From Tubulanus polymorphus (Eukaryota; Animalia; Nemertea): 64,000 bases of DNA. A program made the position numbers and the translations under genes. A model generated the notes under the pieces. The model searched no databases. It worked only from the letters and a program-made list of their open reading frames with translations, and had not been told where the DNA came from. The first letter of the stretch is position 1, and each line of letters begins with the position of its first letter. The stretch covers positions 1 to 64,000 of the forward strand of contig NW_027437436.1 of the NCBI RefSeq assembly GCF_964204645.1. Reading direction: 5' to 3'. This document shows, piece by piece, positions 34,487 through 60,944 of this stretch.

Positions 34487-36720
34487 CTGAAACAGAATAA
34501 ACACCATAGATTACTGCAGAGAGAGAGAGCGAAATATGTTCTACTTTCCTAATTCAATCAACAATTTAGTCGATTTAGGCCTTTTTAATGGCTGGCTTTA
34601 CGGGGTAAACATTTCAAAATATCATTCCAGAGGAGGAAATAAGAATTTTAAGAAAATTCCCTTAGTGAGACTAAATTCATGAACTGGGAACTGTCAAGAG
34701 GGCTGAATATACAAATGTCCAAATAAAATATGCATGGAAAGTTCGAATTCTGCACACTGCGATCAAAAAGGAACCACGCGGTTTTCAATTTGTTCATCAT
34801 TCAAGCCATGATTCTCATTCGGCGGAGGTGAAAGGCATTTCCTTGCTAATTTTTTCACTCAATTTATACACGAACGGGAACAAAAAATTATTTGTTTATT
34901 CTTCCAATTTATGGAGGCGGTTCCCATAAACCTAGCTATTAAAAAAGAGAATAGATATTGTCTGTTTATAAAAGGCCCGTAATATTGAAGATCAATGAGG
35001 AAAATTTGTTACTCTGACATTTCAAGTAGTATACTTTTATCCATCTTCAGAGATTTATTCAGGTTCGAAGTCACTACTACTGATATTCCCCAAAACTGTG
35101 AAACAAGCTGCAGTTCACCCTGTGGGCCATTTTCATGAAATTATGAAGCATTTCAGTTTTAAGTGTTCTGAACAGCTAAGCTGGATTAAGAGCTGCATAA
35201 GAACCACTACTTGTGTGAGGGCGCACCATCTCGTAAATAGTTGAGACTACTATAGCAAACCAATATTATTCATTTTTACAAAACGTACTTTCTGGATTTG
35301 GCAGTTTCATTTTTGGAATAACTATGTCATGGTAGACATAGATTTGATCTGCATAAATATAGCTTTTAAAATATCAGAGTTACATTTTTGAAAAATAACA
35401 TTTTATCAATCATTTTATATCTGAGATTATTTTCTTGTTTCTCTTTGTACCATTTATGACTGCCAAGCCTAGTTACTCTGGTCTGAGAAGCTTTGTTCTC
35501 ATAGTATCTTTAAGTCAACAAACCACAACATTTGCCTAGATACTTAATGGTGACACTAATTACAAAGTTTGTTTTCTTGGCAATCTGGCATCTATCCGTT
35601 GTCAGAGCCCAAGTACCTGGATCCTCCAATCAGATGAATCTTTGCTAGATTGGGTTTGTAGGTGGAGCCAGAGTCATCAAGGTCCAGCTCAGGCCTAGCT
35701 GGGTTATTCTGACTTTGGATTTCATCAAATAAACCCAATCTGCAATTAAAGATTCACTCTCGTATTTTCATTGGATTTCCAGGTAAGATATTTAGTACAC
35801 TTTGTTATTCATAGTGTTTCCATTTATTACAACTTAGCTTAGGCCTAAAACAATAAAGTATAATTTGTCTGCTATATTCTCGCCTCCCCCGAGTGAAGTA
35901 TTCTACCGATCCTTATGGATCTCGATTATTAAAGAAATCGAATGTAAATTAGAATTACAAATAACTGAAATTAGGTTTTGCTTTAAACCATGCAAGACGC
36001 ATATATTTGAATTACAAACTAAAACTTAAGCTGGCAATTTGAGTACTCTGTATATATATACATATATATATTTATATAATTAGTCAACAAGGTGTTATGA
36101 CGATATGATATATAATCTCAGCAATTATTAGTATAATCATGTATATTCAAATGTATGAACTATGACTTTTAATATCTTATTATTCTGACTTTGGATTTCA
36201 TCAAATAAACCCAATCTGCAATTAAAGATTCACTCTTGTATTTTCATTGGATTTTCAGGAATTTCAGGATCACAAAACATAATTATAACCGCGGTGGTTC
36301 ATCCCAAAAACCTCCGCATTAAACTACTTTCAGTCTTAAATGTCATGACGAGAGAAACCCATAATATTATATAGATCGAAAACAACAGCCCTTGTTTTTT
36401 TTTCTTGGCGCCGTTTCTTTCATCTGATTTTGTCCTAATAACATCCCTTCAGGAGAGGTTCCTAATGTGAGCTCTGGTGTGACACTCACTACTATTAAAC
36501 CTTATTTCAAATAATTCCACCTGGAACATTAGGAAACAACAAGCGGTTATTTTATATCTGCATTGTGGGGTTTTCTCTGCATGACATAATCATAATATGA
36601 GTTTAACGTGGAAGTTGATACTTACTCGCTATTTCATCTTTAGCTGAAAAACGGCAAACAACAATAACTAACAAATATAAATTAGTTAAGTAGATCTAAA
36701 CAGGTAAATTTATACAGTTC

Positions 36721-36792
36721 AGTAATTAGAAGATGGCGTTTTCATACCAGAGTACTAGAGTACTAGACACCACTCATCACCACAAGTAATTT
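36721..36792 (+). repeat. Left TIR of element 2
   Basis: Exact reverse complement of 53275-53346; extends imperfectly to 93 bp. Confidence 0.97.
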
Positions 36793-39700
36793 TTTTTCCT
36801 AATAAATGGGGGAGAATGAACACCAGCCAGAAAACAATAATGTTAATGAAAATCAATATCATTGTCCATATTGTAAAAAATACATTGATAAGTCTAATAA
36901 ATCTAAACATGAAAAATCTGCAAATCATATAAAAAATGTAATACATTTTGAAACCCCAGAAAATTCCAATGAAAGAAAGGAACGATTAGATGATATGAAT
37001 GTGGATGAAATAAAATGTGAAGTTTGTTATGAATTTATAGTAAAAAGGAATTATAAAAGACATATCAAATCACAAAAACACCATCAAAATTTGAGTAATG
37101 ATGTTTTAGGAAAAGATTATTTCGATGATAAACCTCAAAAAGTAAAAAAACCAACTTCAAAAACTAAATCCATTTCAAATAAACCTTACATGGAAAATGT
37201 TAGAAATTATATTGATTCACTAGAAATAAAAGATACAATTGAAATTTTAGAAACATTACATAGTAAAATTGGTTCTGCGGCTATTATATTTAGATTCTTT
37301 AAAGGAACAAGAATAGAAGATTATAGTAAATTTAATGAAATAATAGAAAAAATACTAGATTTGATAACAGATGTTGAATATCCAAAAATTAGTATCTCTG
37401 GGAAAGTAAGTTTTATAAAGTCAGAAGATAAAATGGATTATAATATTCAAACACTCTCTGAAGAAATAATTTCAAAAACGCAAATAAAAGAGAAGTTAGA
37501 AAAAATATTTAATGAATTTAAACGTCATATTGAAGAGAGATATTTTGAGGGTTCTGGTTTAACATTGAATGGAATTATATTTTTAGATTTAAATGTTTAT
37601 AATACTTAAAGGAATAAAACATCAAAAAGTAAAACAACGTTTAAAATGACTCAAACTTTACAACAGAAAAGGATATTAAAGCATCAAGTTATATTAAATT
37701 ACCATTTACAACAAAAGCAGTAATAAATGTTCAAAATGAATATAATAAATGTTTTCTATGGTCAATTATTAGTTGCTTACACCCAACAGAAGATATTACG
37801 CATAGTTTTAGAATAACAAATTACCGGAAATATGAAACATTATATAAAATTGATCAATATCCAGTAACTATAAAAATGATACCCAAAATAGAAAAATTAA
37901 TAAGTTAAAAATAAATGTATTCGAATTAATGCAATTACCAAACACAAAAGGTGAAAATATTAAAGATTATACATTGGAAGCTTTATATTTAACAGAATAT
38001 TATGATGATGAAAATGCTATAGATTTGTTATATTACAAAAAAGATGAAAATGAACATTATATGTGGTTAAAACAAATTGATTTATTCTTTAGAACAGAAA
38101 GTGATTTTAACAGTCATAAGATTTATCTATGTAGAAAATGTTTATCTAAATTTAGAACTGAGAATGCGTTACTAAAATATAAAGAATTATGTGATAATAA
38201 AGATTTTTGCAAATTAATAATGCCAACAGAAAAAGATTATAAATTGAAATTTACTAATCATAAATTTAAAAATATTGTTCCATTTGTAATTTATGGGGAT
38301 TTTGAATCGTTGAATAAAGAATTAACTGATCAAGATAGAAAAGAAATATATAACAAAAAGCAATTATTAAAATCAATGGATAAAGGAAATGAATTAAATG
38401 AAGACACAAGACCACCAATTATAAATACAATTAAAAAAGTTCATCAAAGAGCTGCTGCTTATGGAATTTATATAAAATCAAAGTATCCTGAATTATATGA
38501 AAGTCAATATATTTCTTTTAGAGGTGAAGATGTAGTTAATGATTTTTGTAACAAAATGATTGAATTAGAAAGTGATTTTGCAAAATTATTAAACAAAAAT
38601 AAAAGAATAGTTATGACAAAAGAAGATGAAATTGATTTTAATTATGCAACTCATTGTTGTTATTGTGAAAAACGTTTTTATTCATTTGATAAAAAAGTTA
38701 GAGATCATAATCATTAAATTCAAAATATCGTGGGGCTGCTCATGAAGATTGTAATTTACAAGCTAAAAAAGTAAATTTCGTTCCAATATTATTTCATAAT
38801 TTATCCGGCTATGATACCCATCTATTTATAAAACAATTATCAAGGAAATTGGGCGCAATTAATCAAGAAATAGAAGAATATAATGCTATGAATGGTGTAA
38901 ATGTAAGAACATATGATTTTAAACTATTAGCTAAAACATCTGAAAATTATATTTCATTTCAATTTGGTTGCATTAGATTTTTAGATTCTTATAGATTTCT
39001 AGCAAGTTCATTAGATAATTTATTAAAAAGTTTAGTTGATAATGATTTTGTTATAACTCGATATCATTATCCAAATGAACAAGATTCTAAATTATTGAGA
39101 TATAAAGGTGCAATTCCTTATTCATTTTATAAAACACACAATGATTTTAATGTAACAGAATTATTAAAAGATCAATTTTATGATCAATTAAAAGAGGAGT
39201 ATGTGAAAGATGAAGTGTTTAACAGAACATTAAATATTTGGAACCATTTTAAGATGAAAAATCATTGCGAATTAGTTGATTTATATTTATATTTATAAAA
39301 TCAGATGTTATGATATTGGCTGACATATTTGAAAAATTTAGAGAAGTTAATTTGAATCATTTTAATGTTGATCCTTGTTATTGCTACTCTAGTCCTGGTT
39401 TAACCTGGCAATGTGGTTTAAAATACACAAATGTAGAATTAGATTTATTAAAAGAACCAGTTATGGTTTTATTATTTTAAAAATCAATTAGAGGTGGAAT
39501 TAGTGGTGTTATGGGAGATATATATTTTAAAGCAAATGATGAATATAAATTATAATATATTGACGCCAATAATTTATATGGTTGGGCAATGATGCAACCT
39601 CAACCATATAAAAGTTTTATATTAACAGAAGTTGAAAATGATGATAAAACTGATTGGGAAAGCGCAATTGCGAGTTTAAAAGATGAAGCACCAATTGGTT

Positions 39701-39933
39701 ATTTCTTTGTAGTTGATTTAGAATATCCTGAAAATATAAAGTTTAAAACAAGAAACTTACCTTATTGCCCAGAACATTTAACCGTAGATGATAGTTATTC
39801 AAGTGAATACCAGAAGAAAATAAAACCGAAAGATCATGTTTTTACAGAAAAATTAATACTTACTCAAATTAATAAATACAATTATATTGTTCATTATAGA
39901 ATGTTAAAATTCTATCTAAAACAAGGAATGAAA

Positions 39934-40545
39934 CTCTTTCCATGCGACTTCCCTAAAAACCAGATCCTGAGATTTTGCGAACTTTTTTCAAAAAATATTG
40001 GGTTCTCAAACTTCTAGACGGTCTAATACGCTTCCCTACACTAAAATATGATGATTCAGCTTGTTTCTGATGATCTAGCTATTCTGGGGTCGTTAGGGGC
40101 CCCCAAAATGTCAAAAAAAAAAATTTGACCTACTTTCGGGTCATTCGGGTACCCCTACCCCTAACTGCAGCTTCATATTCTCTCTATATATCTTCATTAT
40201 ATCCACTGCGTCATGTATAGACACCGTATACCAGCCGCTGTGTCTATTTATAAAGCTTTCAATTTTGCCCTACTTTGTTTACACAACTTGACCTCAATTC
40301 ACCGATAATGACTTTCGTGACCTATATAGATTTTATTCATACACCCGCCAGCGAACTCGAACAAAAACAAGTCCCTGGGGTTGCCAGGACTACCAGGCAT
40401 ACATACAAGCCGTATAAGCTTTATACATTGCCATTTAGACAGTAAGGGGATAAGTAGGTCAAACACCTGTGACGTGGCGCCACACCGCGCAAAAACAAAG
40501 CGTTCTGGAGACTGTGTCGTCCGGTCACAGTTAGCATGGAAAGAG
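39934..40545. mobile_element. MITE-like insertion interrupting pPolB
   Basis: About 610 bp, GC-richer than its surroundings, bounded by CTCTTTCCATGC / GCATGGAAAGAG inverted repeats. Removing 39936-40543 restores QGMKLEKVHRYIEF. Confidence 0.8.
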
Positions 40546-40964
40546 AGAAAGTACATAGATATATTGAATTTAATCAATCGAAGTGGTTAGAAAAATATAT
40601 AGATTTCAATACTCAACAGAGAACCATATCAAAAACAGATTTTGAAAAAGATTTCTTCAAATTAATGAATAATAGTTTTTATGGTAAAACATGTGAAAAT
40701 ATTAGAAATAGAAATGATATTGAATTAGTAAATAATTCTGAAAGATTAAGACATTTACAATCAAGTCCTAGACATTTAGGAAATAAAAGATTTGAAGATT
40801 ATTTAACAGCAGTTAAATTAAAAAGAACGTCAATGAAATTTGATAAACCTATATTCATTGGTTCAACTGTTTTAGAAGTATCAAAATTATTAATGTATGA
40901 TTTTTATTATAATGTTTTACAACCTTTTTTTGGGGAAAAGCATATTGAAATATTATATTTTGAT

Positions 40965-42029
40965 TCTGTAACAGCTGACGCCCCAATATTATTAAAATGT
41001 AATAATAAAATATTGATAAGAAGAATTTCAGAAATAATTCCAAAACAAAATGAATGTTATATTTCATATGGTGAAAAAGAATTAATACAAATAAATGGAT
41101 TAATGGATGTTTGGACAAGAAATGGATGGAAAAAATTAAAGAATATTATTAGGCATAAAACAAATAAGAAAATCTATAGAGTTAGAACTAAATTAGGGTT
41201 TGTAGATGTTACAGAAGATCATAGTTTAATTAAACGAAATGGCGATGAAATAAAACCAACTGATATAAAAATTGGAGATGAATTATTACATAAAAGATTT
41301 TTCCAAAGAATGAATCATATGTCATTTGATGAAATTATTGATAATTTTTATAACATAGAACCCGAAACATTAGAAGAAAAAGAATATTTTTTTAAAGGAT
41401 TTTTCATGGGAGATGGTTCAGCAGGTGTGTATAATTATGTTAATCGCAATCAATATTGCTGGTATTTATGCAATCAAGATTTGAAATTATTAGCAAGAAT
41501 TAAGAAATTCTGTGAAGAAGTTTATTCACATAAAACATTTAGAATCGTGGATCATATGAAATCAACAGCAGTTTATAGAATACTTGTAAATAACCATAAA
41601 GATTTTGCTACAAAATATAATGACGAATTCTATATCCATACAATAGTTAAAAGTAATACTTCAACTAAAGAAAAGATAGTTCCAGATTATGTATTAAATG
41701 CAAAATATAAATTAAGAAAATGGCTCTTCATTGGATTCTATGCTGCAGATGGTTCAAAAAAATATACGAGATCTCCAGTAATAACATTTGCGCAAAAAGG
41801 AAAAGTTGCTATATCAGGATTGAATATATTATGCAGTTCATTAGGATTTAATATGAATATAGAATTAATTAAATCTAAACCAAATTGTTTTAATTTAAGG
41901 CATACAGAAAAAGATTTAACTGAAGAAGTTATAGATTTATTTGAAATATATAACCCATCAGATTATGTTTATGATTTATCAACTGAAGATGGCACATTCA
42001 ACTGTGGATTTCCATTAATAGCCAAAAAT
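40965..42029 (+). mobile_element. Intein with LAGLIDADG homing endonuclease (355 aa) in pPolB motif C
   Basis: N-extein ..LYFD; block A SVTADAPILL; block B VDVTEDHSL; LAGLIDADG helices FFKGFFMGDGS and LFIGFYAADGS; block F YVYDLSTEDGTF; C-terminus IAKN; +1 Thr (TDA). Confidence 0.95.
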
Positions 42030-42481
42030 ACGGACGCCTACATACTAAAAATCAAGACAAATGATATAACAAAAGACTTAAAAACATTAAAACATCATTT
42101 TGATTTTAGCAATTATCCCAAAGATCATGAACTATTTAGCAATGATAATAAAAAGATTCCTAGTAAGTTTAAAGATGAATTAGAGGGTGATGAAATGATT
42201 GAATTTGTTGGGATAAGAAGTAAAATGTATAGTTACAGAACAAAAGATCATGAAGCTAAAAAGTTAAAAGGAATAACAAAACATGTGGTTGATAAACATA
42301 TAGAATTTCAAGATTATATAAAGTGTTTATATAACTCAATTGTAATGAAACATAAAATGAATTGTTTAAGATCAGAAGATCACGAGATGTACATTAATGA
42401 AGTTGAAAAAACTAGTTTGAATCCATTTGATGATAAAAGGCATATTTTAGATGATGGTATAAAAACATTACCTTATGGCCA

Positions 42482-43810
42482 TTAAAACATAAAATCAATA
42501 TCATCATACTCGAAATCACTATTGGCTTCTTCATTTTCATTTAATTGTTCTTGTATAATTTGTTTCGGTTCTTCCATTTCATTTTTCTCATTTAAATATA
42601 GTTCTATCTTGCGCCACATTTCATCTCGCTCTCTTTGTTTCTTTTTGTTTGTTAATTCATCAAATGGAATTATAATATCTATGTTTAAATTATTTACAAT
42701 CTTATTTAAAAAGAATTCATAATTTATTGAATCTGTTATTCTATTTTCCAAATGATACATTAATATTTGTTTAAATATTTTTTTTTTATTTTCCATATCT
42801 TCTTCTGTTAATTTAGGTTTTTCATAATAATCGTTAAATAATGAATATAAATACATTTTCTTTTGTTTTGTGTTAAATGTTGACGGAATAATTGTTTTTA
42901 TAATATCTTTTTTAGTTATTTCACCATTTTTATTTTCTATTATTTTCATTTTTTCAAGCCATTGCATATATTCTGGTGTATGATCTTCTATAGAAAATAT
43001 TTTAAAAATTTCATCTAGATAATTTAATTTTGGCTCTATGAGAAAATTTCTAGTTTTTTCTTCACCCCATAAATTCTTTTGCCATCCACAATCAACACAA
43101 AATAACACAGTACCTTCTTGTCTTAAGGTCGCATAACTACATTGTGGACATTTTCGTTTATAATTTATTGGTAGTAGATCTTCATTAAGCTCTTGGTATT
43201 TTCTTACGTTTTCTTTATGTTTTATTGTTCTATTATGTAGATTTGAATTACTTGTTGTAATAATCAATTTACAATATTTACAATAATATGTTTTTCTTGT
43301 TAATTCATTATATTGTTTTTCTAACTTTTCAACTGTTTCTTTATTATCTGGTAACGTTTTCTCATATTTTATTTTTTCTAATAAATTATTTTTTCTTTCA
43401 TTGAATTCAGTTTCAAATTTATTAGAAATTTTATCTATATGTACTTTACGAAATTGATGATTCTCCCAATCTTCTATATTTTCAGGGCTATATTTTATTC
43501 GACAAGGCTCGCAGAAATGATCTTTCATATTATCCTTATCATAGAATAAGAAAGGTCTTTTCCAAATAATTTCAGGTTCAACTTCAACAGAATTACTATT
43601 ACTTTCATTACTATCAACATTAGCCGTTGCGCCATTAATTTTACACTTCTCTGAATGTTTTTTAACATAATTTCTTGAGAATAATTTATTACATTTTGGG
43701 CAGTTTAGTTTAGGGGGTTTATAATTTTCTTCATGTTTTTTCATATGTCGAGCCATATTACTTTTTCTTAGAAGTTCACCACAAATTTCGCATGGTATCT
43801 TCTCATCCAT
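42482..43810 (-). CDS. Multi-zinc-finger protein (element 2)
   Basis: CEIC..HMKKH, CPKC..HSEKC, CEPC..HQFRKVH, CKYC..HNRTIKH, plus a CPQC..CVDC ribbon; intact 442 aa. Confidence 0.8.
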   Translation of the reverse strand: MDEKIPCEICGELLRKSNMARHMKKHEENYKPPKLNCPKCNKLFSRNYVKKHSEKCKINGATANVDSNESNSNSVEVEPEIIWKRPFLFYDKDNMKDHFCEPCRIKYSPENIEDWENHQFRKVHIDKISNKFETEFNERKNNLLEKIKYEKTLPDNKETVEKLEKQYNELTRKTYYCKYCKLIITTSNSNLHNRTIKHKENVRKYQELNEDLLPINYKRKCPQCSYATLRQEGTVLFCVDCGWQKNLWGEEKTRNFLIEPKLNYLDEIFKIFSIEDHTPEYMQWLEKMKIIENKNGEITKKDIIKTIIPSTFNTKQKKMYLYSLFNDYYEKPKLTEEDMENKKKIFKQILMYHLENRITDSINYEFFLNKIVNNLNIDIIIPFDELTNKKKQRERDEMWRKIELYLNEKNEMEEPKQIIQEQLNENEEANSDFEYDDIDFMF

Positions 43811-43878
43811 TTATTAAGGAAAAATTTTATTAAAATTAATTTTTAGTGATGAGCGGTAATTTTTTTATGTTATAAATA

Positions 43879-44632
43879 ATGGTAGAATTAAAAGAATACA
43901 GAATATTTGTTGATTCTAGAAAACTTACAAATTATAAATCACATAATTTAATAGTTCAATTAGATAGAGAATTTAAGAATTGTGTTGATTTAAAATTAGT
44001 AAATATAAGTTTATGTAACTCATTTTACAATATATCGGAAAAAAGTCTAGAACATTTAATTTTTTCAATCTTTTACAAAAAAAAGGAATAAATGGTTTTT
44101 TATATATTTAAAACCAGGATTATATAATTTAGATACATTAGCACAAGAAATTAATAGAAAAGCTCGAGCTAAATTAGGAAGTGATTCCGGATTTAGTATT
44201 AGAATTTTAAAAAGTGATAGTTCTAATAAAATAAAGATTAGGTTAGCTAATGACGAACAATTTAAATTTACAGTAAGAAAACCTTTAGGTAAACTGTTAG
44301 GAATTAACCCAGGTATTGTTACAGCATACGCAGAAGGTAAATCAAACTTAATACCTTTTACACATTTTTATATTTATTGCAATTTAATTGACCCAACAAA
44401 AACATTTGAAGCAACTAAAGATACAATTTGTAATTCTGGTTTATTAAATATTTTACCATTAAAAAATGTCAAACAATTTGGAACTCAAATAAATTATAAT
44501 TTAACTGAATGTGATTTCAAACCTTGTATTCCACATTTTAATAATTTTAGATTAGAAATAAGAAATCATAATGGTTATTTAATTGATTTGAATAACTTTC
44601 CTGTGATATATGAATTAGTTATAAGATGTTAA
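43879..44632 (+). pseudogene. Minor capsid protein (penton), frameshifted
   Basis: IFVDSR..NSFYNI at the N-terminus; after a frameshift near 44090, FYIYCNLI..LLNILP..RLEIRNHNGYLIDLNNFPVIYELVIR, a pattern typical of Polinton single jelly-roll pentons. Confidence 0.75.
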
Positions 44633-44654
44633 GAGTAATTTTTTCACTATATAA

Positions 44655-45014
44655 ATGAATATAACTGTTGGACCGAGTATATGTTTTGGATTTGATTTTA
44701 AACGTGAGAAAGAAATGAAATTTAACATTAATGATGTAATTACACATATCAAAAATATAGCATTTTCTAATGAAACAACATTTGAGTATGAAACAACAAT
44801 AGATAAAGAAACTTTAAATGTAGAAAAGATTACTAATTTAATTAGAGAATCTTTAAGATTTTATGAATTAGATGAAGATTTTATCATAGATGATATTAAA
44901 AACATATCAACCAAAATATATGATAATCATAAAAGTAGTAATGAAATAAATGTTGAATTAATCATCACTAAGATAACTAAATATTTTGAAGAAAGTAATT
45001 TTTTTGATAAATAA
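44655..45014 (+). CDS. Hypothetical protein (element 2)
   Basis: 119-aa ORF with a TAAATG start. Confidence 0.65.
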   Translation: MNITVGPSICFGFDFKREKEMKFNINDVITHIKNIAFSNETTFEYETTIDKETLNVEKITNLIRESLRFYELDEDFIIDDIKNISTKIYDNHKSSNEINVELIITKITKYFEESNFFDK

Positions 45015-45239
45015 ATGAGTGATAATAAGTGGATAATAACTGGATTATATAATGGAGCATTACTATCAGTTGGAACTGTTGGTTATTCAATGGTATTAAA
45101 AAAAGTATTCAAAATGGGAAGTGTTAATCTTGATAGATTTGATATAAATGATATTTTAAAATTAACATTAGCAGTTACTTTATCTAATTTAACTATTGAT
45201 TATTTAGAAAAAACAAAAATATATATTCCTCCCACATAA
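45015..45239 (+). CDS. Small hydrophobic protein (element 2)
   Basis: 74 aa, two hydrophobic segments, TAAATG start. Confidence 0.65.
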   Translation: MSDNKWIITGLYNGALLSVGTVGYSMVLKKVFKMGSVNLDRFDINDILKLTLAVTLSNLTIDYLEKTKIYIPPT

Positions 45240-45263
45240 ATGCATAATTTTTTTGCTAAATAA

Positions 45264-45686
45264 ATGGCTTCTGCAATTATAACTATTATAGGATCGGCAA
45301 TTGTTAACGCTTTAGCATTTACTGGTGGTGGTTATTTATTTAAGCATATTGATAAAAATAGTTCATTAGGAGAACAAAGAAGACATAACTTAGCATTAGA
45401 GAAATACAATAAAGCAGCAGAAGAATACAGAGAAAAACGACAAAACTATATGGATTATATTAACAAGGAATTATATGATCAGAAGATTTCACATAGAGAT
45501 TTTCAATCAGTTGATGATGCTATGAGTTTATATAACGCAGTAACCAATAAAGAAAAATTACATCTATACAAACCTAAATTATCAGATTATTATACCCCAA
45601 GTAAAGAACAACAGAAATATGAAATAATATGGATTTTAGGTGGAACTGTTATTGTTATATTTGTAGCATATAAATTTACTAATTAG
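45264..45686 (+). CDS. Small protein with hydrophobic termini and a central coiled coil (element 2)
   Basis: 140 aa; MASAIITIIGSAIVNALAFTGGG..HNLALEKY..C-terminal TM segment. Confidence 0.7.
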   Translation: MASAIITIIGSAIVNALAFTGGGYLFKHIDKNSSLGEQRRHNLALEKYNKAAEEYREKRQNYMDYINKELYDQKISHRDFQSVDDAMSLYNAVTNKEKLHLYKPKLSDYYTPSKEQQKYEIIWILGGTVIVIFVAYKFTN

Positions 45687-45706
45687 TAATTTTTTTTTCT
45701 AAATAA

Positions 45707-46126
45707 ATGGAAGATAAAGTTGATAGTATTGATATTATTCCTCATGATATAAATAAAACTAAATTGAAAATATATTTAGAAAAACAAATATTAGAATTTG
45801 AAAGTGACTTAAAGATAAAAAAGAAAAAATATTTAAAAAGTAAAATTATATATTATCTTATTATTAGTGGTTCGGTTACAATTAGTTCTGTAATAACATT
45901 TCTAGCAATATTCAGTCCATTAACACCTTTAGCTATATCAATTGGTGTATTAGGATTAAGTTCAAGTGTTTTAACTGGTATAAGTTCAAAATTAAATATA
46001 AAAAGTAATAAAGAAAAAATTAAAACTAATATAAAAGAAATTAATAAATTAAAGAATACACTAGATTATATAATAAGTTTAAATGGTCATATAACAGTTG
46101 AAGAACAAGATTTAGAAAAGAATTAA
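45707..46126 (+). CDS. Coiled-coil protein with two TM segments (element 2)
   Basis: 139 aa; hydrophobic hairpin flanked by Lys-rich helices. Confidence 0.65.
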   Translation: MEDKVDSIDIIPHDINKTKLKIYLEKQILEFESDLKIKKKKYLKSKIIYYLIISGSVTISSVITFLAIFSPLTPLAISIGVLGLSSSVLTGISSKLNIKSNKEKIKTNIKEINKLKNTLDYIISLNGHITVEEQDLEKN

Positions 46127-46153
46127 TAAATTATTAATTTTTTAATTATGTAA

Positions 46154-47557
46154 ATGGTAGATAGTTTTCCAAAAGCTTTCCAATATGATAAATCAATTAA
46201 ATATAATATTCCAGCAATAGATTTTAATAAAGATATTACATATAGAAATGAAGTTTTAGATTCATTAACTAATTTAGAAATTTATGTTACTGAAACTAAT
46301 AATTTTAATGCAAAGATGGAAAATATATTTCATGTATATTTAATTAATTTTAAAAAATTGAAAGATGAAAAACAATGGTTATTAAAATCTAATATGAAGT
46401 ATTGGCAGAACCAATTAAATTTTGCTGTTTATTGTGCAACAACAGGATGTGGAATTAGTTGGAATGATCATTTGAATAATTCTAAATATAAATTAATTCA
46501 AAGTTTATTTAGATTTCATACATACTTTCAAATCAGAATAATATTAAATGAATTAGAGTGCGCTTTACCAGGATCTAGGTATTTTAAAGAATTAGATAAT
46601 AATATTAATTTATCAAAGTTTAATACAATTTGTAATGAATTTAATATAGATATAAATAATTCTGATTTTAGAACAAAAATTGGAACAATAAGATCACGTC
46701 CTTGCCCTAAAAAGATTGCAGAATATTGTGCACTTCCCATACCATCTAATAGTTTGTATAATATCTATAGTAATAAATTAGGTTATGGTAAAATAGAAAC
46801 TAAGGATTTAGAAACATTAAATTTCAATAAATTACCGACATTTTATGATAATTTAAAACAAGAAAACAATAATGGTTGGGTTTATTTCATTTTAGAAAAT
46901 AATGAAGGTTTTACAAAATCAGGTATACAAAGAATAAATCAATCTATTAGAACTTATTTGATATGTATTTTAGGTGCGCAAGTTGAAACAAGATCCCCAA
47001 TAATTGGAAATTTAAATACATCATTTGATACACAGAAACAATTCAAAGTATTATTTGAAGATTCTATTCATAATGATAAAAATAGATCGATTCCAGAAAA
47101 CATTGTAAGATATCAAAATTATTTAGATAAATCTCATGTAAGACTAAATTATTGTATAGGCCCTAATCTATTAATTATTTCTAATGATTTAGTACTAAAG
47201 ATGGGAAACATAATTGGTTACAATAATCTAATTAAAACTGCAACAATAAATAATTCATTTGGATTAAATGATATAAATAAAAAGATTATTACCGCTCCAA
47301 AATTAATGGAAGGTGAAAAAAATAAAAAACACATTCAATCTACAGAAACTAAAACTAAAAATATTAAATTGCATAATGATTCTAAAATAAAAGATTACAA
47401 TACATCAGAAAATATAAAAACTGATAATATTCAACATGATATAATTAAAACTGATAATGATAATAAATTCCATGAAAATACTAAATTAGCTTTAACTTGT
47501 ACAGGAATTGTTATAGGAGGAATATTATATTTTAAATTTTATTTTTTTATTATATAA
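46154..47557 (+). CDS. Hypothetical protein with a C-terminal TM anchor (element 2)
   Basis: Intact 467 aa; WQNQLNFAVYCATTGCGIS..FRFHTYFQ..ILGAQ motifs. Confidence 0.75.
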   Translation: MVDSFPKAFQYDKSIKYNIPAIDFNKDITYRNEVLDSLTNLEIYVTETNNFNAKMENIFHVYLINFKKLKDEKQWLLKSNMKYWQNQLNFAVYCATTGCGISWNDHLNNSKYKLIQSLFRFHTYFQIRIILNELECALPGSRYFKELDNNINLSKFNTICNEFNIDINNSDFRTKIGTIRSRPCPKKIAEYCALPIPSNSLYNIYSNKLGYGKIETKDLETLNFNKLPTFYDNLKQENNNGWVYFILENNEGFTKSGIQRINQSIRTYLICILGAQVETRSPIIGNLNTSFDTQKQFKVLFEDSIHNDKNRSIPENIVRYQNYLDKSHVRLNYCIGPNLLIISNDLVLKMGNIIGYNNLIKTATINNSFGLNDINKKIITAPKLMEGEKNKKHIQSTETKTKNIKLHNDSKIKDYNTSENIKTDNIQHDIIKTDNDNKFHENTKLALTCTGIVIGGILYFKFYFFII

Positions 47558-48993
47558 ATGGATGTAGAAGGTGGAGAAGATATTGGAATGGATCCTTTAG
47601 ATGAACCTGGTATAACTGATGAACAACAACCTGATTTTAGTGAAACAAGTTTTAATGACGGTAATGCGTCAGGATATAATAATAATTTAAATATGCCTGA
47701 TTATATTAGAAATGCAATTAGAATCACAATTAAATCCTGAAAATTTAGACCCAGATTTAGTAAATCAAGATTTAGATAATTTAAACAAAATACCTAAATT
47801 AGAAGATTTAATTGAAAAATCTAAACTTAACATAAATGATGAAGACGTTGGACTTTTAGCAGATCAATTAAAATTTTTAGATAATGGTAAATGTTACTAT
47901 CGTTTGAAAGGTGATTATTATATTGATATCACTTATAAAAATAATAAAAATAAAATATGATCAGAATCAACTTTAGAAAAATTAAAACCAGATAGAATTA
48001 AAAGAATAAGTAATAGTAATGAAATAACTGATGTTACACAAAAAGAAAGAGATGATAATATAGACGTATTTAAACAAAAAATTAATGAATTATTTGAAAT
48101 AATCAAAAAGAAATCAGAAACAGAAACAACTTCTGAACAGAATATAACTTCCAAAACTAGTAAACTTAAATCAAATAAAGTTTCAATTGAAAAACTTTTA
48201 CCGAATGGATTAATTGATGCAACAGATCAAGAATTAGAAGATTTAGATATATTTTCTGATAAAGCAATTAGAGAGATTATTAGTATAAGAAATGAAGCTG
48301 ATAAAATTGCGCATGATAAAAGTATAAGAGATTTAAAAATTAGAACTTTAGAAAAAGAATTAACTGATAAAAATATAGAAATAGAACAATTAAAATTAGA
48401 TAGAGATAATAAAGTTATTGAAGAAATTGAATTTAAAAAAAAGAAATGCATATTTAGAAAAAGAAATTGATGATTTAGAATATAACATAGAATTACAAAA
48501 AGAAGAAATAAAATTATTATTAAAATCATATGATTATAATATTAATAGATTAAAAGTTATTTTCAAAGATTTATTGATAAAACCAAATTCTGAAATATCA
48601 TTGAAAGATAGAATAAAGTTATTATTTAAATTAGAAGGAATAACAATTCTTTCAATTATAACAGCTGTAACTATGTTATTTACAACAATAGGTTTAGCAA
48701 TATCAAATGCTTTAAAATCTACTCCTACTCCCAATAAACCGGATAAACCCCCGAATGATAATTCTATACAAGATAAAGTTAAAGATGGTTTAAAGAAATT
48801 AGCAAAATATTTATGGGAACTATCTAAAAAATCTGCTGCAGCTTTACCAGGAATTATTGCATCAATTGTTGGTTTTATATTGAAATCTGCTGGGAACATT
48901 CTTAACTTTGCTGCTGAATATATTATTTTATTTTTAATTACGGTTGTAAGTGCTATTATTTTTGGGTTAGTGAATATGATTAAAAATAAATAA
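47558..48993 (+). pseudogene. Long coiled-coil protein with C-terminal hydrophobic/amphipathic helices, fragmented
   Basis: ORF pieces 47558-47740, 47712-47960 and 48418-48993 share one TAAATG start. Confidence 0.6.
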
Positions 48994-49013
48994 TTAATTT
49001 TTTTGTTAAATAA

Positions 49014-50261
49014 ATGAGTGGGAGTTATATAAGTCCTTCTAAGATTTCTAGAATATCTAATGCTATTAAAGCAGAAAGATCACATCATATAATTACTCAT
49101 AATCCTTCAAATATTAATCCCGATGAAACTTTATATGTTAGAATTCCTCGATTAACACAAAATACTTTTTATGTTCCAAATAGTATTTATCTATCAGCTG
49201 ATATAAAAGTAACTGGTCATGATAATAATTATGTTGTTGATAATGTTGGGAGATATTTGATTAAAAAATTAACTATAAAGATTGGTCCAGAAACAGTTTT
49301 CTCATTAGATGATTATAATTTATTTATGCATTATGAAGATTTATAGTTAACTAAAGAAAATAGAAATAATATGATATTTCAGGGTATTCAATCGGAAAAC
49401 CATAATAAATTAAGATCAGGAGCTAATGACGCAATAGTAACTCGTGCCACAGATAATATGATTAAAAAGATTTATGGAAGCAAATATGAAATTCCATTAG
49501 ACTTTGAATTGATAAATAATAATGCACCTTTATATAAATATTTAATTCAAGAAGATATTATATTTGAGATAACATTTGCTCCTGTAAATGAAATTGTATT
49601 ATCTAGCTTTGTTAAAGATATGGGTTATAAATTATCAAATATATGTTTAGAATATGACACAGTTACTAATGAAAATATTGCTAGCACAATTCAAACTCAA
49701 TACAATCAAGGATTTTCATTATTATATGATTATATTGATAAATTAAAAACTGTAACTATTAATGCAAATGATGAAATAATTAATGAGAATATTAACTTCC
49801 CAAGAAGATCTATTAAAGGTATATTAATATTTTTTACCATTGCAACATATTCTAATGGCGCAATAAAGGTAGATAATTATTATAATCCTGAAATAACAAA
49901 AGTAGAAATAACTATCGAAGGAATAGCATATAAAATATTTTGTCAAGGAATGAGAATGATAGATCAATGGCCAGAAATTAGAAAACATTTTATGAATGAA
50001 AAAGTAAAATCATTTGAAAATTGTAACATTAATCAAATTGATTATTATACCGGCAATAAATATGCATTATGGTTAGATTTAAGAACAACAGAGGATAATT
50101 CATTACATGGTTCTGGGAAAAAACTACAGAACACTAAAGATGGAATACAATTATTCATGGCGAAGAAAACAGGAGACAAAAATTTCAAAATGCAGATTTA
50201 TATTATATCTGACGCACAATTAAATATTGTAAATTCACAATTAGATAGTATTCAATATTAG
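49014..50261 (+). pseudogene. Major capsid protein (double jelly-roll), one in-frame stop
   Basis: About 415 codons in one frame with TAG at 49344-49346; beta-rich (NPSNINPDETLYVRIP, IIFEITFA, PRRSIKGIL, WLDLR..LHGSG); lies next to INT and ATPase. Confidence 0.75.
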
Positions 50262-50291
50262 AAATATAAAGTTAAAATTAAGGATATATAA

Positions 50292-51419
50292 ATGGGTGGT
50301 AAAAAAACTCCTAATACTATAAAACAATATTTAAGAAATTTATATTACAACCCCGAGAGTTCGGTTGCTTATTCTTCTACCAAAAATATATGGCGTCAAG
50401 TAAAACAAGATAAATTAGATAAGACAATCCCACAAAATTTAGTTAAATATAAAGATATAAATGAATTTATGTTAGAACAACCAGCATACACAACACATAA
50501 AAAAATTGTTAGAAAATATAAAACTCGTTAAACTATGGTAAGTTATGTAGATCAACAGTGGCAAGGAGATTTAATTGATATGAAAAATGTTAAGAAAGAT
50601 AATGATGATTATTGGTGGTTATTGAATATAATTGATATTTTTAGTCGTTATGTATGGAGTTTCCCACTTTATAGAAAAGATGCTGTACAAACATCAAATG
50701 TTTTAAGAAAATTTCTTTCGGATGATAAACTAAAACCAGAAAAAATACAATTTGATGATGGAAAAGAGTTTGATAATTCACTTGTTCATGAACTCTTAGA
50801 TAATCATAATATTAAATATTTTTCAACAAAATCGGATAAAAAAGCAGCAGTTGTTGAACGATTTAATAGAACATTAAGAACAAGAATGTGGAAATATTTT
50901 ACAGCAAATAATACTTTTAAATGGATTGATGTTTTACCAAAATTGATAGAAGGATATAATAATTCCTATCATTCTTCTATTGGAATGAAACCTATTGATG
51001 CTAAAAAACCTGAAAATGCTGAAATTGTTTGGAATAATTTATATGGAGCATTTCTTGTAGATGATTTTGGTGAACCTAAATTTAAAGTTGGTCAAAATGT
51101 TAGAATTTCTAAGTATAAAAAGATATTTGACAAAGGATACGATCGAAATTTTACTAGGGAAATATATAAAATAAAAAAGGTAATAACAACAAAACCACAT
51201 GTCTATAAATTAGAAGATTTAGATGGTGAAGAAGTTGATGGCTACTTTTACGAAGAAGAATTAAGTTTAACTACTGAAAATCTACAACAAGAATATAAAA
51301 TTGAAAAAGTATTAAAAACAAAAACTATTAAAAGAAAAAAATATTCTTTAGTAAAATGGGTTGGATGGCCAGATAAATTCAATGAATGGATATTATCAAG
51401 TAAAATTAAAAATATATAA
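50292..51419 (+). pseudogene. Retroviral-like (rve) integrase with C-terminal chromodomain, one in-frame stop
   Basis: WQGDLID, IDIFSRY, QFDDGKEF, VVERFNRTL (DDE triad); IEKVL..LVKWVGW..EW chromodomain; TAA at 50529-50531. Confidence 0.93.
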
Positions 51420-52028
51420 ATGAATAAGGAATTATTTATATTTGAGCCTCATAATATGTTAATTTCTGGTGTAACAAATTGTGGAAAAACTTATTTTATA
51501 TTAAATTTATTAGGAACTGTTTATAAAAACTATTTTGATAATATAGTATTATTTTGTCCAACATATGAATTTAATCAAACTTATGATAGTAATATTACTA
51601 GAAATAATAAATTTATTATATTAGATCCTAAAACAGTAAAAGAAAATTTAGATAATTGTATTAAAATAGCAATAGATATTTATAAAGGATCAAATACATT
51701 ATTCATTATAGATGATTGTGCAAATTTACATGATTCAAAAATTAGAGAAAGTGAGTTATGTTATTTAGCTTTTTCTGGTAGACATTTTGGGATAACAACA
51801 TGGGTTTTAAATCAAAAATATAATTCAATTGTTAAAGACTTTAGAGAAAACATTAGATTTCTAGTTTTATTCTACAATAAAGATAGAAAATCGATGAAAA
51901 ATGCACTTGAGGAAAATGATATTATTCCACATGATTTACATAATGAATATATGGATAAGTTGAAAAATATTAAAAGATCAAAATTACTATTTAGATTACA
52001 ACACCCATTTAAATATGAATTTATTTAA
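51420..52028 (+). CDS. A32/FtsK-like genome-packaging ATPase
   Basis: Walker A GVTNCGKT, Walker B FIIDD, GRHFGIT..NQ, REN. Confidence 0.92.
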   Translation: MNKELFIFEPHNMLISGVTNCGKTYFILNLLGTVYKNYFDNIVLFCPTYEFNQTYDSNITRNNKFIILDPKTVKENLDNCIKIAIDIYKGSNTLFIIDDCANLHDSKIRESELCYLAFSGRHFGITTWVLNQKYNSIVKDFRENIRFLVLFYNKDRKSMKNALEENDIIPHDLHNEYMDKLKNIKRSKLLFRLQHPFKYEFI

Positions 52029-52029
52029 A

Positions 52030-52205
52030 TTCAACTAGCTTGTTAATCTAGTTTAATTCTAGTTACATTCTAGTTGAATTCTAGTTGTTAGTAGTTGGAA
52101 CAAAAATCAACTAGATTTAACAAGAAATAAACAAAAACAACAATATTTCAACTAGCTTGTTAATCTAGTTGAATTCTAGTTACATTCTAGTTGAATTCTA
52201 GTTGC
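52030..52205. repeat. CTAGTT-rich internal repeat block of element 2
   Basis: Two copies of about 57 bp of TTCAACTAGCTTGTTAATCTAGTT..TTCTAGTTG. Confidence 0.8.
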
Positions 52206-52235
52206 AACATCACAACTAATTTTTTTGTTATATAA

Positions 52236-52773
52236 ATGGGAGGTGAAAAGAAAATAAAATCTAAAAATGGTGATGTTCCAATTGAAAAAACTTTAGATGA
52301 TTTAGGAATAACAGAAAACAACTAATTCCAGATGATGGTGCTTTAAATAATGTTACAACAAATGATAATTATGAATATTATCTTTATTCTAAACATCAAT
52401 TAGAAATATTAATAGCATCTGGAAAATGTAAAAATTTTGTCGGTAAAAATTTAACTTATAATGAATTAGATACAATGAAATCAGATGAAATTATTAGATT
52501 ATTTAAGATTTATGAAACCGCGAGAACAGCTAGAATTAATGACGCGATATCAGAAAATGTAGTAAAAGGTTATAGTAAATTATGTAATTATATACTACCA
52601 ATTGAAGATGAAAATAGATTATATTCCGATTTAAAAAATGACTATTTAGTTATGACTGAATTAAATAAATGGATTGGATATTTATCATTTCAATGAGGTG
52701 GATTTATGACATTATTATCAACTGGGGTTATAACATTTTCAAATATTGAAAGTAAAAATATTTCTTTGGATTA
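52236..52773 (+). pseudogene. Homologue of ORF 60945-61547, disrupted
   Basis: IEKTLDDLGI..YEYYLYSKHQLE..ARINDAISE..LKNDYLVMTEL; frameshift or stop near 52324 and TGA at 52694. Confidence 0.8.
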
Positions 52774-52934
52774 ATATTTTAGAAAAAAAGCAAAAAAATA
52801 ATTTTTTTAATTAATTGAATATTAATTGAATATCTCACTACTTTTGTCTATCTATGCGGAGCAATTAAATTGTCCAGATAAGTCATTTCGGATTCTAGAT
52901 ATTCATTATTTTTATTAATTTATCTTTTTTAAAT

Positions 52935-53261
52935 TTAATCAACAATTTCTAAATCATGATGGCCATCTTCATTTTTTCCATGATAGATTATTTTAAATCC
53001 TTCTAAATCTTTTAATTCCTCTGTACTCAATGAAAACCATTTATCAGGTAAAAATACTTTAAATTCTCGTGATGTACTAACATTACAGTAGCTTAAATTA
53101 GCTGATACTTTCTCTCCATATTTAGTTTTTATCTTTTCTAATTTCAATATTTTATGTTCAATTTCTTTTGTAACATCAATTAACTTTTTTATTTCAAATT
53201 GTTTTTTTGCTGGTTTTATTCTGTTATTTATTGTTGCTAAGAATGCTTTTCTATCTCCCAT
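52935..53261 (-). CDS. Small terminal protein (108 aa) whose start lies in the extended right TIR
   Basis: Intact ORF; homologous to 5656-5990. Confidence 0.75.
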   Translation of the reverse strand: MGDRKAFLATINNRIKPAKKQFEIKKLIDVTKEIEHKILKLEKIKTKYGEKVSANLSYCNVSTSREFKVFLPDKWFSLSTEELKDLEGFKIIYHGKNEDGHHDLEIVD

Positions 53262-53274
53262 TTATAAGGAAAAC

Positions 53275-53346
53275 AAATTACTTGTGGTGATGAGTGGTGT
53301 CTAGTACTCTAGTACTCTGGTATGAAAACGCCATCTTCTAATTACT
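53275..53346 (-). repeat. Right TIR of element 2
   Basis: Exact reverse complement of 36721-36792, followed by the TSD CAGTTC. Confidence 0.97.
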
Positions 53347-53464
53347 CAGTTCACTTAAACAGTGTCTAAATAATTCTATATTACTCCTAGTTTTGATCTG
53401 AATCAAAAGTGGAATCAGAATTGGTTTATTTGCCCTTTGAAGTTCAACCTTGAATTCTACTCAC

Positions 53465-55595: not shown

Positions 55596-57629
55596 AAATT
55601 ATAGGTTATTGCACGGTTGAATTCGAAGCGCGTTAACGCCGAGATTTCCACCGTGCAATAACATACTTAATACGTGGCTCTGAACCAAAACAGATGCTTC
55701 TAACAATCTGATGATATGATCATGAAATGGTATCAAATAAATCAGCTGCAAGCACAAAGATTGTTCACACTTACTTTTATCCCGTTCTGTAGAATGTTTG
55801 TTCCCGATTAATTTCTTCGAACTTGACTCCGATAAAACCGATTCTACAATTATATGAGTGAAATAACACAGAAGCCCGATGGTACTAAGTCCCAAGTGGG
55901 CTCAATGGGTCCAGGGACACCACGCCAACTTAGGAAGTGGCATGGAATGCACAACAATCATAAAATCCTAACATTCAATGCCGTTGGTGATCGTATAAAG
56001 AAGTGAATGACCTAGAAACTCACCACACTGTCTCAAAATTGTGTTATGAGCTACAATCCTGCAATTGACTGGTATAAGTTGAGGTCGTACAGTTGTATGA
56101 ATCATGATCTAGATGTAGACGACCTTGAATGACCTTGAAACTCGATCAGGACGATCGGGGAAAATGTAAAGTTGCCTATATCGGATGGCTCAGGATCACC
56201 TTTACAATTCTCATTTCGGATATATCAGTTCTCAATTCATATTGAACCGCCGTTCCAGCATCAACATCGGCGGTCGATTCAACCGATTCCAGCAATCCGA
56301 TGAGGGCCGTTGAGGGTCCCCAGCGTGTTTTGGCATGGGCTTGTCGGGTTTGGGGAAGTGTCAAATTTTAAACAATCTGGTAATATACCGCATAAAAACA
56401 ATAACTCATATCTATCTGCTAGCAAATGCTATCATCCACAACACTCACACGTCATTATGTATGTGCTACTGCAGTATGTTTTTTTTTTCTCATTGGTTTT
56501 TAATAGCAGGTGTGTTTCTGTTTTTGACAACAATTAATGTTTTAACTAAACATCTTTCCTTTCCCGTACGATTGCCAATATGTTTGTAAATCATTCCCAG
56601 TTTTGATGGGACAAGAAAACAAGGTGTCAATGGGCACTGTTAGATTCAGCGCAGAAGTTATTGAATTGAAGGAGCTAATCATATCCATCCACCATACTAG
56701 ACCATACATTGGTTTAGTAAGGTACTCTATCAGCATATACTTGACATAAAAGGAAGTGCATGTTATAAAAGTATAAGGTAATTAGATTTTAAATAACAAA
56801 CAGTTGTTTATACAAGGAAGAGAAGGTAAAAGCATAACGCATTTTAAGTAGGCCTAATAGATTTTGAAATTAAAAACATGTAATTATCATAAATCATAAG
56901 CCTCCTAATAAGATAATAAGGTTTCGTTAAATCAAAAGCATCTCAGATGTCATATTTAAATTTTTGTTGTTGAAGCTGAAATCAAATCTAGCTGTATCAG
57001 GAAATGAGAAAGTATCCTAAGTTCCATACAAACTCTGCTACCCTGCTACGTAACCGTCTCATCATACATCTTAGCGTCAAGCAGTAGCGCGAAAGAGACG
57101 CAGAAGTCACCAAGACGAATCCACGCAATGACAGGATCGTAGCAGTAAGCCATTATGCGTTCGATTTCAAGTATATACTACACAATATTGGTCGACTTGT
57201 ATGGTGTTTTTAATGCGAATTTAAGTGTTTAAAATTCATCTGCATATCGATACAAACGTTTGTTTCGTTAAGATAACCCAAAATATTTCCAAACAAATCT
57301 TTTTCTATTAAGAGAATATCCTTTATCTAAAGATAAACGGCTCCGCTGATTTTGGTGAGCTTCACTTGTAACTAAAACGAGGGCTCTATCATCACAGCTG
57401 CACAGTAAATACTGCAAACTACGCCGCGCATCGACATGAAATTTTCAGCACAGCACATGAAAAATCCTCGTCAATTTTATTTCTTCTTTTGTAGTTTTCT
57501 TATTGAAGAATTTGATATAATGTATCAGTATATAAAAAGCCTGCTTGTAAATTCGACAGCAAATGTTGTACAATGCCGCTCATATTGATTGTGTCTACTT
57601 TATAGATCAAGATGACGTCACACTACATC

Positions 57630-58035
57630 AGTAATAGGGGTAATAGGCTTTCATACCAAAGGTCGAACGGTCGAGCCCATTAAAAAACAAAATATTAAAA
57701 GTAATTAAAAAACTATAATATATTTTCATAACCGCGTGCATTTTATATCAAAACTAAATATTTATTATAAGATATCAATAATATAAAAAGCATATTGTAT
57801 TAAATCAATTGGTCGCTCCACTTCGCTACCGCTCCGCTCCGCGACCAATTGATTTAATTACAATACACAAATTCAAATAATCAAATATATTCAAATGATA
57901 ATAATTATTCTATTATTCAACTGAAATGCACGCGGTTATGAAAATATATTATAGTTTTTTAATTACTTTTAATATATGTTATTAATGAACTCGATCATTA
58001 AACCTTTGATATGAAAGCCTATTACCCCTATTACT
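57630..58035. repeat. 406-bp terminal imperfect palindrome of element 3
   Basis: Outer arms about 57630-57742 / 57924-58035; inner 18-bp stem 57799-57816 / 57841-57858. Confidence 0.92.
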
Positions 58036-58117
58036 CTTAAAATATTCATATATATATGAATAACATTTAAATCATTGAACTTCTAAAATCAATTTTAATA
58101 AAAAATATAGCATTAAA

Positions 58118-60720: not shown

Positions 60721-60944
60721 AGAATAATATATCTCAAATAAAATATAATAAAAATTACATACCTTCAACTATCTACCATTTCTATTATATTTTTAATATT
60801 TTCTTTTCAAAAGAGAATACTTTATATCACAAATAAAAAATACTTAAAAAACAATAACTAATACTAGAATTCTTTAACTTTAACTATCTAGTATCATTTG
60901 AAGAATACTTATAATATTTTTCTTATTAAATTTCTCTAATATAA

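Follow-up and report, generated by a model that had tools for sequence, protein, structure and literature searches.

We analysed a 64-kb window of the genome of the nemertean Tubulanus polymorphus (contig NW_027437436.1, positions 1 to 64,000), to whose numbering all coordinates below refer. The window is ~38% GC and contains three AT-rich stretches of 22–29% GC; the second of these, which we call Element 2 (36721–53346, 16.6 kb), is a decayed copy of a multi-copy Polinton/Maverick whose genes start, with few exceptions, at the hexamer TAAATG, usually downstream of a short run of T residues, in a layout that resembles the late promoters of poxviruses. Target-site duplications of Polintons/Mavericks are 6 bp long, and Element 2 is bounded by a duplicated hexamer immediately outside its terminal inverted repeats (TIRs). 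Together with a protein-primed DNA polymerase B (PolB), an rve integrase, an A32-type packaging ATPase and a double-jelly-roll major capsid protein (MCP), these termini identify it as a Polinton/Maverick. Its features are given below with one partial neighbour, where "motif" stands for the T-run and TAAATG and ORF for open reading frame.

36715–36720, no strand: left target-site duplication CAGTTC, identical to the hexamer at 53347–53352
36721–36813, + strand: left TIR, 93 nt, 97% complementary to 53254–53346; holds a complete promoter motif together with the opening codons of the terminal gene
36787–36808, + strand: promoter motif TAATTTTTTTT-N-TAAATG of a zinc-finger gene (36806–37609, 267 amino acids) with only weak zf-U1/C2H2 matches in Pfam
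37640–42485, + strand: PolB in at least five frame pieces, recognised by similarity to the PolB ORFs of relatives, with an intein carrying a LAGLIDADG domain
39934–40545, no strand: 612-bp GC-richer insertion within PolB; 143 raw DNA reads (run X7) skip from 39933 to 40546
42482–43833, − strand: multi-zinc-finger gene, 442 amino acids, TAAATG start at 43810, A/T-rich variant of the upstream motif
43857–43881, + strand: promoter motif of a putative penton gene, TAATTTTTTT, a 6-nt spacer, TAAAT, A, ATG; the gene is frameshifted past codon 70
44636–45014, + strand: motif and 119-amino-acid gene
44996–45239, + strand: motif and conserved small gene, 74 amino acids; the motif is embedded in the 3' end of the preceding ORF
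45245–45686, + strand: motif and conserved membrane-type gene, 140 amino acids, with 26 related loci
45687–46126, + strand: motif and 139-amino-acid gene
46135–47557, + strand: motif and conserved virion-module gene, 467 amino acids, fold not assigned, with 24 related loci
47535–48993, + strand: T-run-variant motif and a gene in pieces, homologue of a 485-amino-acid ORF of locus L001
48995–50261, + strand: motif and MCP gene, with a single in-frame stop at 49344–49346
50268–51419, + strand: TAAATG start without T-run and rve-chromodomain integrase, with a single in-frame stop at 50529–50531
51396–52028, + strand: TAAATG stop–start overlap without T-run and A32-type packaging ATPase (PF04665, E 6e-13)
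52030–52204, no strand: two direct repeats of 58 nt each, 98% alike, made of 11-nt units, in the sole long intergenic gap, which follows the ATPase gene
52217–52696, + strand: motif and frameshifted homologue of a conserved protein of ~206 amino acids
52935–53282, − strand: terminal gene, 108 amino acids, TAAATG start at 53261, within the right TIR
53254–53346, − strand: right TIR, 93 nt, 97% complementary to the left TIR
53347–53352, no strand: right target-site duplication CAGTTC, copy of the hexamer at 36715–36720
57500–64000, + strand: Element 3, a partial related element; integrase 65% and ATPase 82% identical to those of Element 2; TAAATG at 4 of 9 ORF starts

Relatives were gathered by a capsid-profile scan of metagenome contigs, which yielded 80 loci (numbered with an L). 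The MCP of one of them, L001, is 77–80% identical to that of Element 2, and its model (predicted local distance difference test score, pLDDT, 85.7) is a double jelly roll that Foldseek matched to viral MCPs at E 1e-19 and to the capsid proteins of Singapore grouper iridovirus and Paramecium bursaria chlorella virus 1 at E 1e-16; it is closer to these iridovirus and chlorovirus capsids than to mavirus (E 5e-11). The integrase matched PF00665 at E 1.6e-10 and carries a chromodomain. The PolB pieces share 26–44% identity with PolB ORFs from L020, L023 and L035; PF03175 was found in the L020 ORF at E 7e-14 and at 40536–41030 in the window at E 7e-5, under the cut-off. The label "penton" is that of a preliminary description of this DNA, and the 70-amino-acid piece that bears it is 68% identical to a 254-amino-acid ORF of L001. 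An Atlas search with the 467-amino-acid protein gave no match, and neither the window nor 57 ORFs of the relatives had a Pfam match to a protease family.

Two insertions lie within PolB. The intein (40990–42060) gave an Intein_splicing match of E 2e-8 that narrowly missed the Pfam cut-off and a LAGLIDADG_3 match above its own cut-off, and the residues flanking it resemble the conserved acidic motif of the polymerase. The 612-bp insertion is probably a small nested transposon and is missing from the majority of the other genomic copies; reads that bridge its site carry four additional letters at the joint.

TAAATG at the gene starts of Element 2

The genes are unspliced ORFs spaced 0–30 nt apart, except for 207 nt downstream of the ATPase, in agreement with the intronless and tightly packed arrangement first described. 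TAAATG stands at 13 of their 15 starts, compared with 48 of the 665 ATGs on both strands of the element (~7%; binomial p ~1e-13). All 17 starts for which the preliminary description had claimed TAAATG, 13 in Element 2 and 4 in Element 3, do read so; the penton start differs, as it had also noted, reading TAAATAATG at 43873–43881. Removal of the three stop–start overlaps at 45015, 47558 and 51420 leaves the enrichment in place (10 of 12 starts, p ~2e-10); loss of enrichment on this removal was an outcome that the preliminary description had named as refuting it, and it did not occur.

The upstream half of the signal is similarly specific. A run of at least five T residues precedes 10 of the 13 gene-start TAAATGs and 4 of the 35 other TAAATGs (Fisher p 3e-5). 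The composite TAATTTTT-N6-10-TAAATG matches the whole 64-kb window eight times, against 0.09 expected from 100 shuffles, and all eight matches fall at Element 2 gene starts. From the end of the T-run to TAAAT the distance is 6–8 nt. The penton gene keeps TAAAT at the usual 6 nt from its T-run while its ATG is shifted 3 nt downstream, which argues that the upstream core, not the start codon, positions TAAAT.

The same signal can be learned elsewhere and recovered here: a weight matrix covering −22 to −4, with TAAATG excluded, was trained on the metagenome relatives alone, and when ~33,000 positions were ranked with it, Element 2 gene starts filled ranks 1–3, five of the first 8 places and eight of the first 25. 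When Element 2 is pooled with 16 loci of the clade described below, TAAATG is the start of 78 of 105 ORFs of at least 60 amino acids. These 78 sites conserve A at −18/−17, T at −15 to −12 (47–69 of 78) and T-A-(A/T)-A at −7 to −4, and 54 of them have G at +4; information is conserved only to about −22, giving a whole signal of ~25 nt that ends at the ATG. The 27 ORFs that lack TAAATG include 11 that are internal pieces of broken Element 2 genes or antisense ORFs, and 3 with TAAAT within 12 nt.

Ahead of certain genes, TTTTAATAAAAAATAT followed by (TA)TAAATG replaces the T-run (43810 on the − strand, 58118, 59946 and 5656 in the window; L001:565, L002:2461 and L005:2287), and this form may mark a second promoter class. 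The PolB starts (37640–37930 in the window; L058:12253, − strand) are clear exceptions, in which an A-rich stretch occupies the place of TAAATG; PolB may be expressed as part of another class of genes, possibly an earlier one.

The TAAATG signal is supported as a real promoter-like element acting on single genes. Divergent gene pairs 19–28 bp apart each have their own TAAATG at both genes (L015 2017/2046, L058 6447/6476, L002 5548/5568); within each TIR, the motif stands before the first gene although nothing is encoded ahead of it; and in 10 of 13 cases the TAA of the motif is not the stop codon of the upstream ORF, which ends 20–30 nt earlier. These observations count against a signal that serves translation or RNA processing alone. 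In 19 loci spanning all lineages the MCP is conserved from Met1 onwards, and in 14 of these no further Met occurs up to residue 80; translation therefore begins at the ATG of the motif, and we infer that transcription begins inside TAAAT. Two other roles were considered and rejected: TATAAATG as a TATA box ~30 nt ahead of a downstream start, because the MCP is conserved from Met1, and a trans-splice acceptor, because no AG precedes the ATG.

Relatives, copies and surrounding DNA

An MCP tree was built from the 53 of the 80 loci with an MCP ORF of at least 330 amino acids, plus the window MCP. Loci with TAAATG at the majority of their ORF starts group in a single 15-row clade, for which the Shimodaira–Hasegawa-like approximate likelihood ratio (SH-aLRT) support is 99; 13 of these carry the motif, and the other 2 have one ORF or none to judge. 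Within it the share of TAAATG starts is high (14/16 in L001, 7/8 in L002, 3/3 in both L009 and L015). L058, with TAAATG at 12 of 13 ORFs, falls outside, on a long branch in the sister group. Clade members at 36–44% GC keep TAAATG (L006 3/3, L007 3/4, L008 3/5), whereas AT-rich relatives outside the clade (L019, L021, L032 and L075) have it at 1 of 21 ORFs together; the motif is therefore a lineage trait and not a product of AT-richness. GC-rich relatives have TAAATG at none of their 7–15 ORFs per locus.

In its TIRs, 6-bp duplication, protein-primed PolB, rve integrase, A32 ATPase and double-jelly-roll MCP, Element 2 is the same as animal Polintons/Mavericks of the adintovirus type. It differs from the sampled Polinton relatives in that most of these lack TAAATG starts, and its clade is much more AT-rich than the host flanks (23% versus ~38% GC). 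The closest MCP relatives are on metagenome contigs, and more distant ones (~40% identity) are on megabase-scale eukaryotic contigs, a bivalve genome entry among them; ATPase and MCP profile searches of IMG/VR returned no relatives. In two clade members a TAAATG promoter precedes a gene for a deoxynucleoside kinase (PF01712, E 1e-31), which Polintons do not usually carry (L001:10343–10981 and L007:2898–3377, both on the − strand).

Element 2 itself has decayed, with in-frame stops in the MCP and integrase genes and frameshifts in PolB, penton and two further genes. Raw DNA reads under the same species label have a summed depth of 82–999 in the interior of the element and 19–40 in its flanks, ~3–30 times higher, and the family is therefore multi-copy. 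Where Element 2 has its MCP stop, a different sequence is found in 655 of 665 reads, so that the stop is private to this copy. An alternative genetic code was rejected: the two stops are one TAG and one TAA, frameshifts occur as well and the MCP stop is private, which indicates decay and not recoding. Hundreds of run X7 reads from other copies depart from Element 2 at 43878, 52765 and 52901; accessory regions of both arms thus vary among copies. One of the diverging read ends opens with another TAAATG start.

The window holds two further members of the family, Element 3 and Element 1, the latter a partial related AT-rich element at 5500–12500 whose zinc-finger ORF is 50% identical to that of Element 2. 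The occurrence of all three within one 64-kb stretch means that the family is clustered as well as multi-copy. The host DNA among them contains long (TG/TA)n microsatellites and several minisatellite arrays (4271–5561, 15268–17300, 19323–21550 and 24118–25842), and an intronless NACHT ORF of 924 codons lies in the flank at 27774–30548.

Likeness to the promoters of large DNA viruses

The passages of PMC5294985 on vaccinia describe a late promoter with a ~20-bp core containing T residues, a 5–7-bp spacer and an initiation site at a conserved TAAAT, after which G or A is the usual base, and no 5' untranslated region. The preliminary description had called a T-run plus TAAATG the signature of poxvirus late promoters, and the order of core, spacer and TAAAT(G/A) in those passages agrees with it. 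In Element 2, TAAATG overlaps the ATG in 13 of 15 genes, and the penton gene has TAAATA at its start; as far as that source covers them, poxvirus late (and intermediate) promoters likewise combine a T-containing A/T-rich core, a ~6-bp spacer and TAAAT(G/A) over the ATG, with no templated leader. The likeness rests on this layout, the fixed AA at −18/−17 and the TA(A/T)A at −7 to −4 being matrix features of the present clade. Unlike a poxvirus, Element 2 is a 16.6-kb integrating Polinton with no RNA polymerase, in which Pfam detected none of VLTF-1, -2 and -3. Late promoters of African swine fever virus (ASFV) are given a similar two-part design in the same passages, with a TATTT core and TATATA at the start site.

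IMG/VR was scanned twice with the composite motif of the element; the first scan listed at least 120 loci and the second 92. Every listed locus of the first scan has a single motif match, and so does every locus of the second except L280, which has two. Among 120 listed first-scan loci, the highest share of TAAATG starts belongs to L095 (5/6; the runner-up has 3/9), which is part of a 200-kb chordopoxvirus contig with Pox_A11, A12, A14, A15, G9-A16 and P21 (A17) matches at E 1e-32 to 1e-142. The promoters of L095 share the Element 2 layout, for example at the gene with the Pox_A14 match. The top loci of the second scan were chlorovirus contigs (5 of 10–12 starts), a 299-kb contig (4/12) and a fragment of a giant virus metagenome-assembled genome (GVMAG; 4/6). 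The TAAATG signature is thus typical of poxviruses and also present in some other Nucleocytoviricota.

As far as Pfam and ORF sizes show, Element 2 encodes no RNA polymerase, as had been proposed from the outset: Pfam, applied to all three elements and to 57 ORFs from relatives in the clade, found no RNA polymerase subunit, TBP (PF00352), TFIIB or VLTF family, and the largest ORFs left without assignment are those of 467 and 442 amino acids. The 442-amino-acid protein consists of a zinc ribbon followed by a helical region; its matches in the PDB are weak and of C2H2 and zinc-ribbon type only, a homologue search found none, Atlas scores were 0.77 at most, and a single-sequence AlphaFold model was unusable (pLDDT 38). 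We rejected it as a VLTF3-like late factor, since BLASTP against chlorovirus VLTF3 gave E 0.11 over 75 amino acids and a profile comparison gave a probability of 0.8%, with a narrow VLTF3 alignment in which every returned sequence was at least 74% identical. Neither zinc-finger gene is kept in motif-bearing relatives: the 267-amino-acid protein matches only Element 1, and the 442-amino-acid protein only 56 amino acids at the end of L001.

Candidate sources of the transcription machinery

The motif is thus confirmed and extended to a clade, its resemblance to poxvirus late promoters is real, and dependence on a helper virus is plausible. We would give an even chance to the explanation that we place first, in which the promoters of Element 2 are served by a pox-type viral RNA polymerase supplied in trans by a co-infecting large DNA virus. 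Integrated copies would not be expressed before infection of the cell by a virus whose late promoters are of the TAAAT type; their mRNAs would then start inside TAAAT and be nearly leaderless, like those of poxvirus late genes. The element would be expressed and replicated in or beside the viral factory, in the manner of a virophage; its own capsid and ATPase would package it, and its integrase would insert it anew.

Such a life is known from the virophages and endogenous mavirus-like elements (EMALEs) of protists, in the pairs of mavirus/EMALE04 with Cafeteria roenbergensis virus (CroV) and of Sputnik with mimivirus. According to PMC10945749, these are likewise small integrating elements with a protein-primed PolB, an rve integrase, an A32 ATPase and a double-jelly-roll capsid; the late-promoter motifs of a giant virus recur in its virophages, one short motif before nearly all genes being the late promoter of the helper, and the elements are silent until the helper infects. 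Among eight EMALE types in that account, only the one with the CroV late motif was reactivated by CroV. Element 2 differs from mavirus and the EMALEs in that the CroV motif is TCTA, the hosts are protists, and the helper is known and dependence on it experimentally shown, whereas the helper reading of Element 2 is drawn from sequence.

A second parallel involves animal poxviruses themselves: polinton-like viruses (PLVs) were co-sequenced from occlusion bodies of entomopoxviruses (Barth et al. 2024, PMC11296320). These are described as Polinton-like, ~12 kb long and tied to animal poxviruses, with one relative integrated in a beetle chromosome; the integrase was not detected in two of four elements and the capsid genes are said to be highly divergent. 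In the text of PMC11296320, "promoter", "TAAAT" and "motif" have zero occurrences each. Our literature searches found no description of TAAATG starts in Polintons or virophages or of poxvirus-type late promoters in Polintons, and on Polinton promoter motifs they found only work on protist virophages and PLVs.

Several points weigh against supply by a helper. No helper virus is known, and among the matches listed, the IMG/VR motif scans gave no candidate tied to the host. TAAATG starts are not exclusive to poxviruses, being found in the GVMAG fragment L249 (4/6) and in the chlorovirus locus L259 (5/12), so a helper could also lie outside the poxviruses proper. In both Element 2 and L058 the motif is missing from PolB, and the AATAAA within its common AAATAAATG form could double as a polyadenylation signal. 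Start site, strand and polymerase are predicted here from sequence; no RNA run containing Element 2 was found, and run X9, which we guessed to be RNA, matches over only 20–30 nt. The tens of germline or nuclear copies with target-site duplications would equally fit an ordinary nuclear Polinton, and the two element-specific zinc-finger proteins could be the element's own promoter-recognition factors. A sister lineage (L013, L016, L017, L032 and L037) likewise carries a start-proximal box, though a different one: it lacks TAAATG, and 68% of its 22 ORFs have a TATA no more than 16 nt from the ATG, compared with 9% that have one at −40 to −25. This box may fit a family habit of start-proximal initiators, with no helper needed, or it may point to lineage-specific helpers. 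In L017, ATTTT(C) frequently lies ~10 nt upstream; its combination with the start-proximal TATA resembles the two-part ASFV design sketched in PMC5294985, a resemblance only, and one that concerns these relatives and not Element 2.

The last three of these points, namely the many nuclear copies with target duplications, the two lineage-specific zinc-finger genes, which adjoin PolB, and the different start-proximal TATA-type box in sister lineages, favour an alternative that we think possible but rather unlikely: that the motif is a promoter belonging to the element itself, at which host RNA polymerase II (Pol II) would work with an element-encoded DNA-binding factor, for which the 267- and 442-amino-acid proteins are the candidates, Element 2 then being an autonomous nuclear virus with a private late switch. 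Against it, the motif-bearing relatives do not conserve the zinc-finger genes, read ends suggest that most other copies differ left of 43878, and Pfam found no TBP or TFIIB. The geometry is also awkward. A Pol II TATA box lies ~30 nt before the transcription start, and a box that ends at the ATG, with translation from that same ATG, misfits this spacing.

That the motif acts on RNA appears very unlikely. Long polycistronic transcripts would run from the TIRs, TAA-ATG would serve termination and reinitiation, and AATAAA would polyadenylate the upstream gene; the intergenic spacing of 0–30 nt, the true stop–start overlaps at 45015, 47558 and 51420 and the AATAAA of the AAATAAATG form all suit this scheme. 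It fails to account for the motif before the first gene of each TIR and at both genes of closely spaced divergent pairs, or for the 10 of 13 cases in which the TAA is not the upstream stop; a T-run at fixed distance plays no part in reinitiation, and there is no AG to act as splice acceptor. Finally, although the element is only 22–29% GC and TAA precedes 7% of its ATGs, a by-product of extreme AT-richness and ORF calling is refuted by the binomial p of 1e-13, by the 8 matches observed against 0.09 in shuffles, by the clade members at 36–44% GC that keep the motif while equally AT-rich relatives lack it, and by a matrix from relatives that predicts the Element 2 gene starts.

Returning to supply by a helper virus, a wider version of it is tentative, and on balance we doubt it more than we believe it: the whole Polinton clade may live as virophages do, parasitising pox/asfar-type (Pokkesviricetes-like) viruses that await discovery in marine eukaryotes, possibly in animals. 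The helper would then determine the type of promoter, the TAAATG clade corresponding to pox-type and the ATTTT-plus-TATA sister lineage to asfar-type late transcription, and the many copies in the genome would form a sleeping stock, roused by infection and possibly an inherited antiviral defence as for the mavirus-like elements in Cafeteria.

Promoter mimicry is the best sequence-only marker of the particular giant virus that a virophage needs, and it has so far been documented in protist systems. If Element 2 is indeed transcribed by a helper, the logic of promoter mimicry would extend to pox-like viruses and would give a mechanistic counterpart to the polinton-like viruses associated with entomopoxviruses. 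The share of TAAATG starts per element would sort the Polintons of eukaryotic genomes into autonomous and helper-dependent ones, and the Tubulanus copies would predict a helper virus not yet seen in this host, together with the grammar of its promoters.

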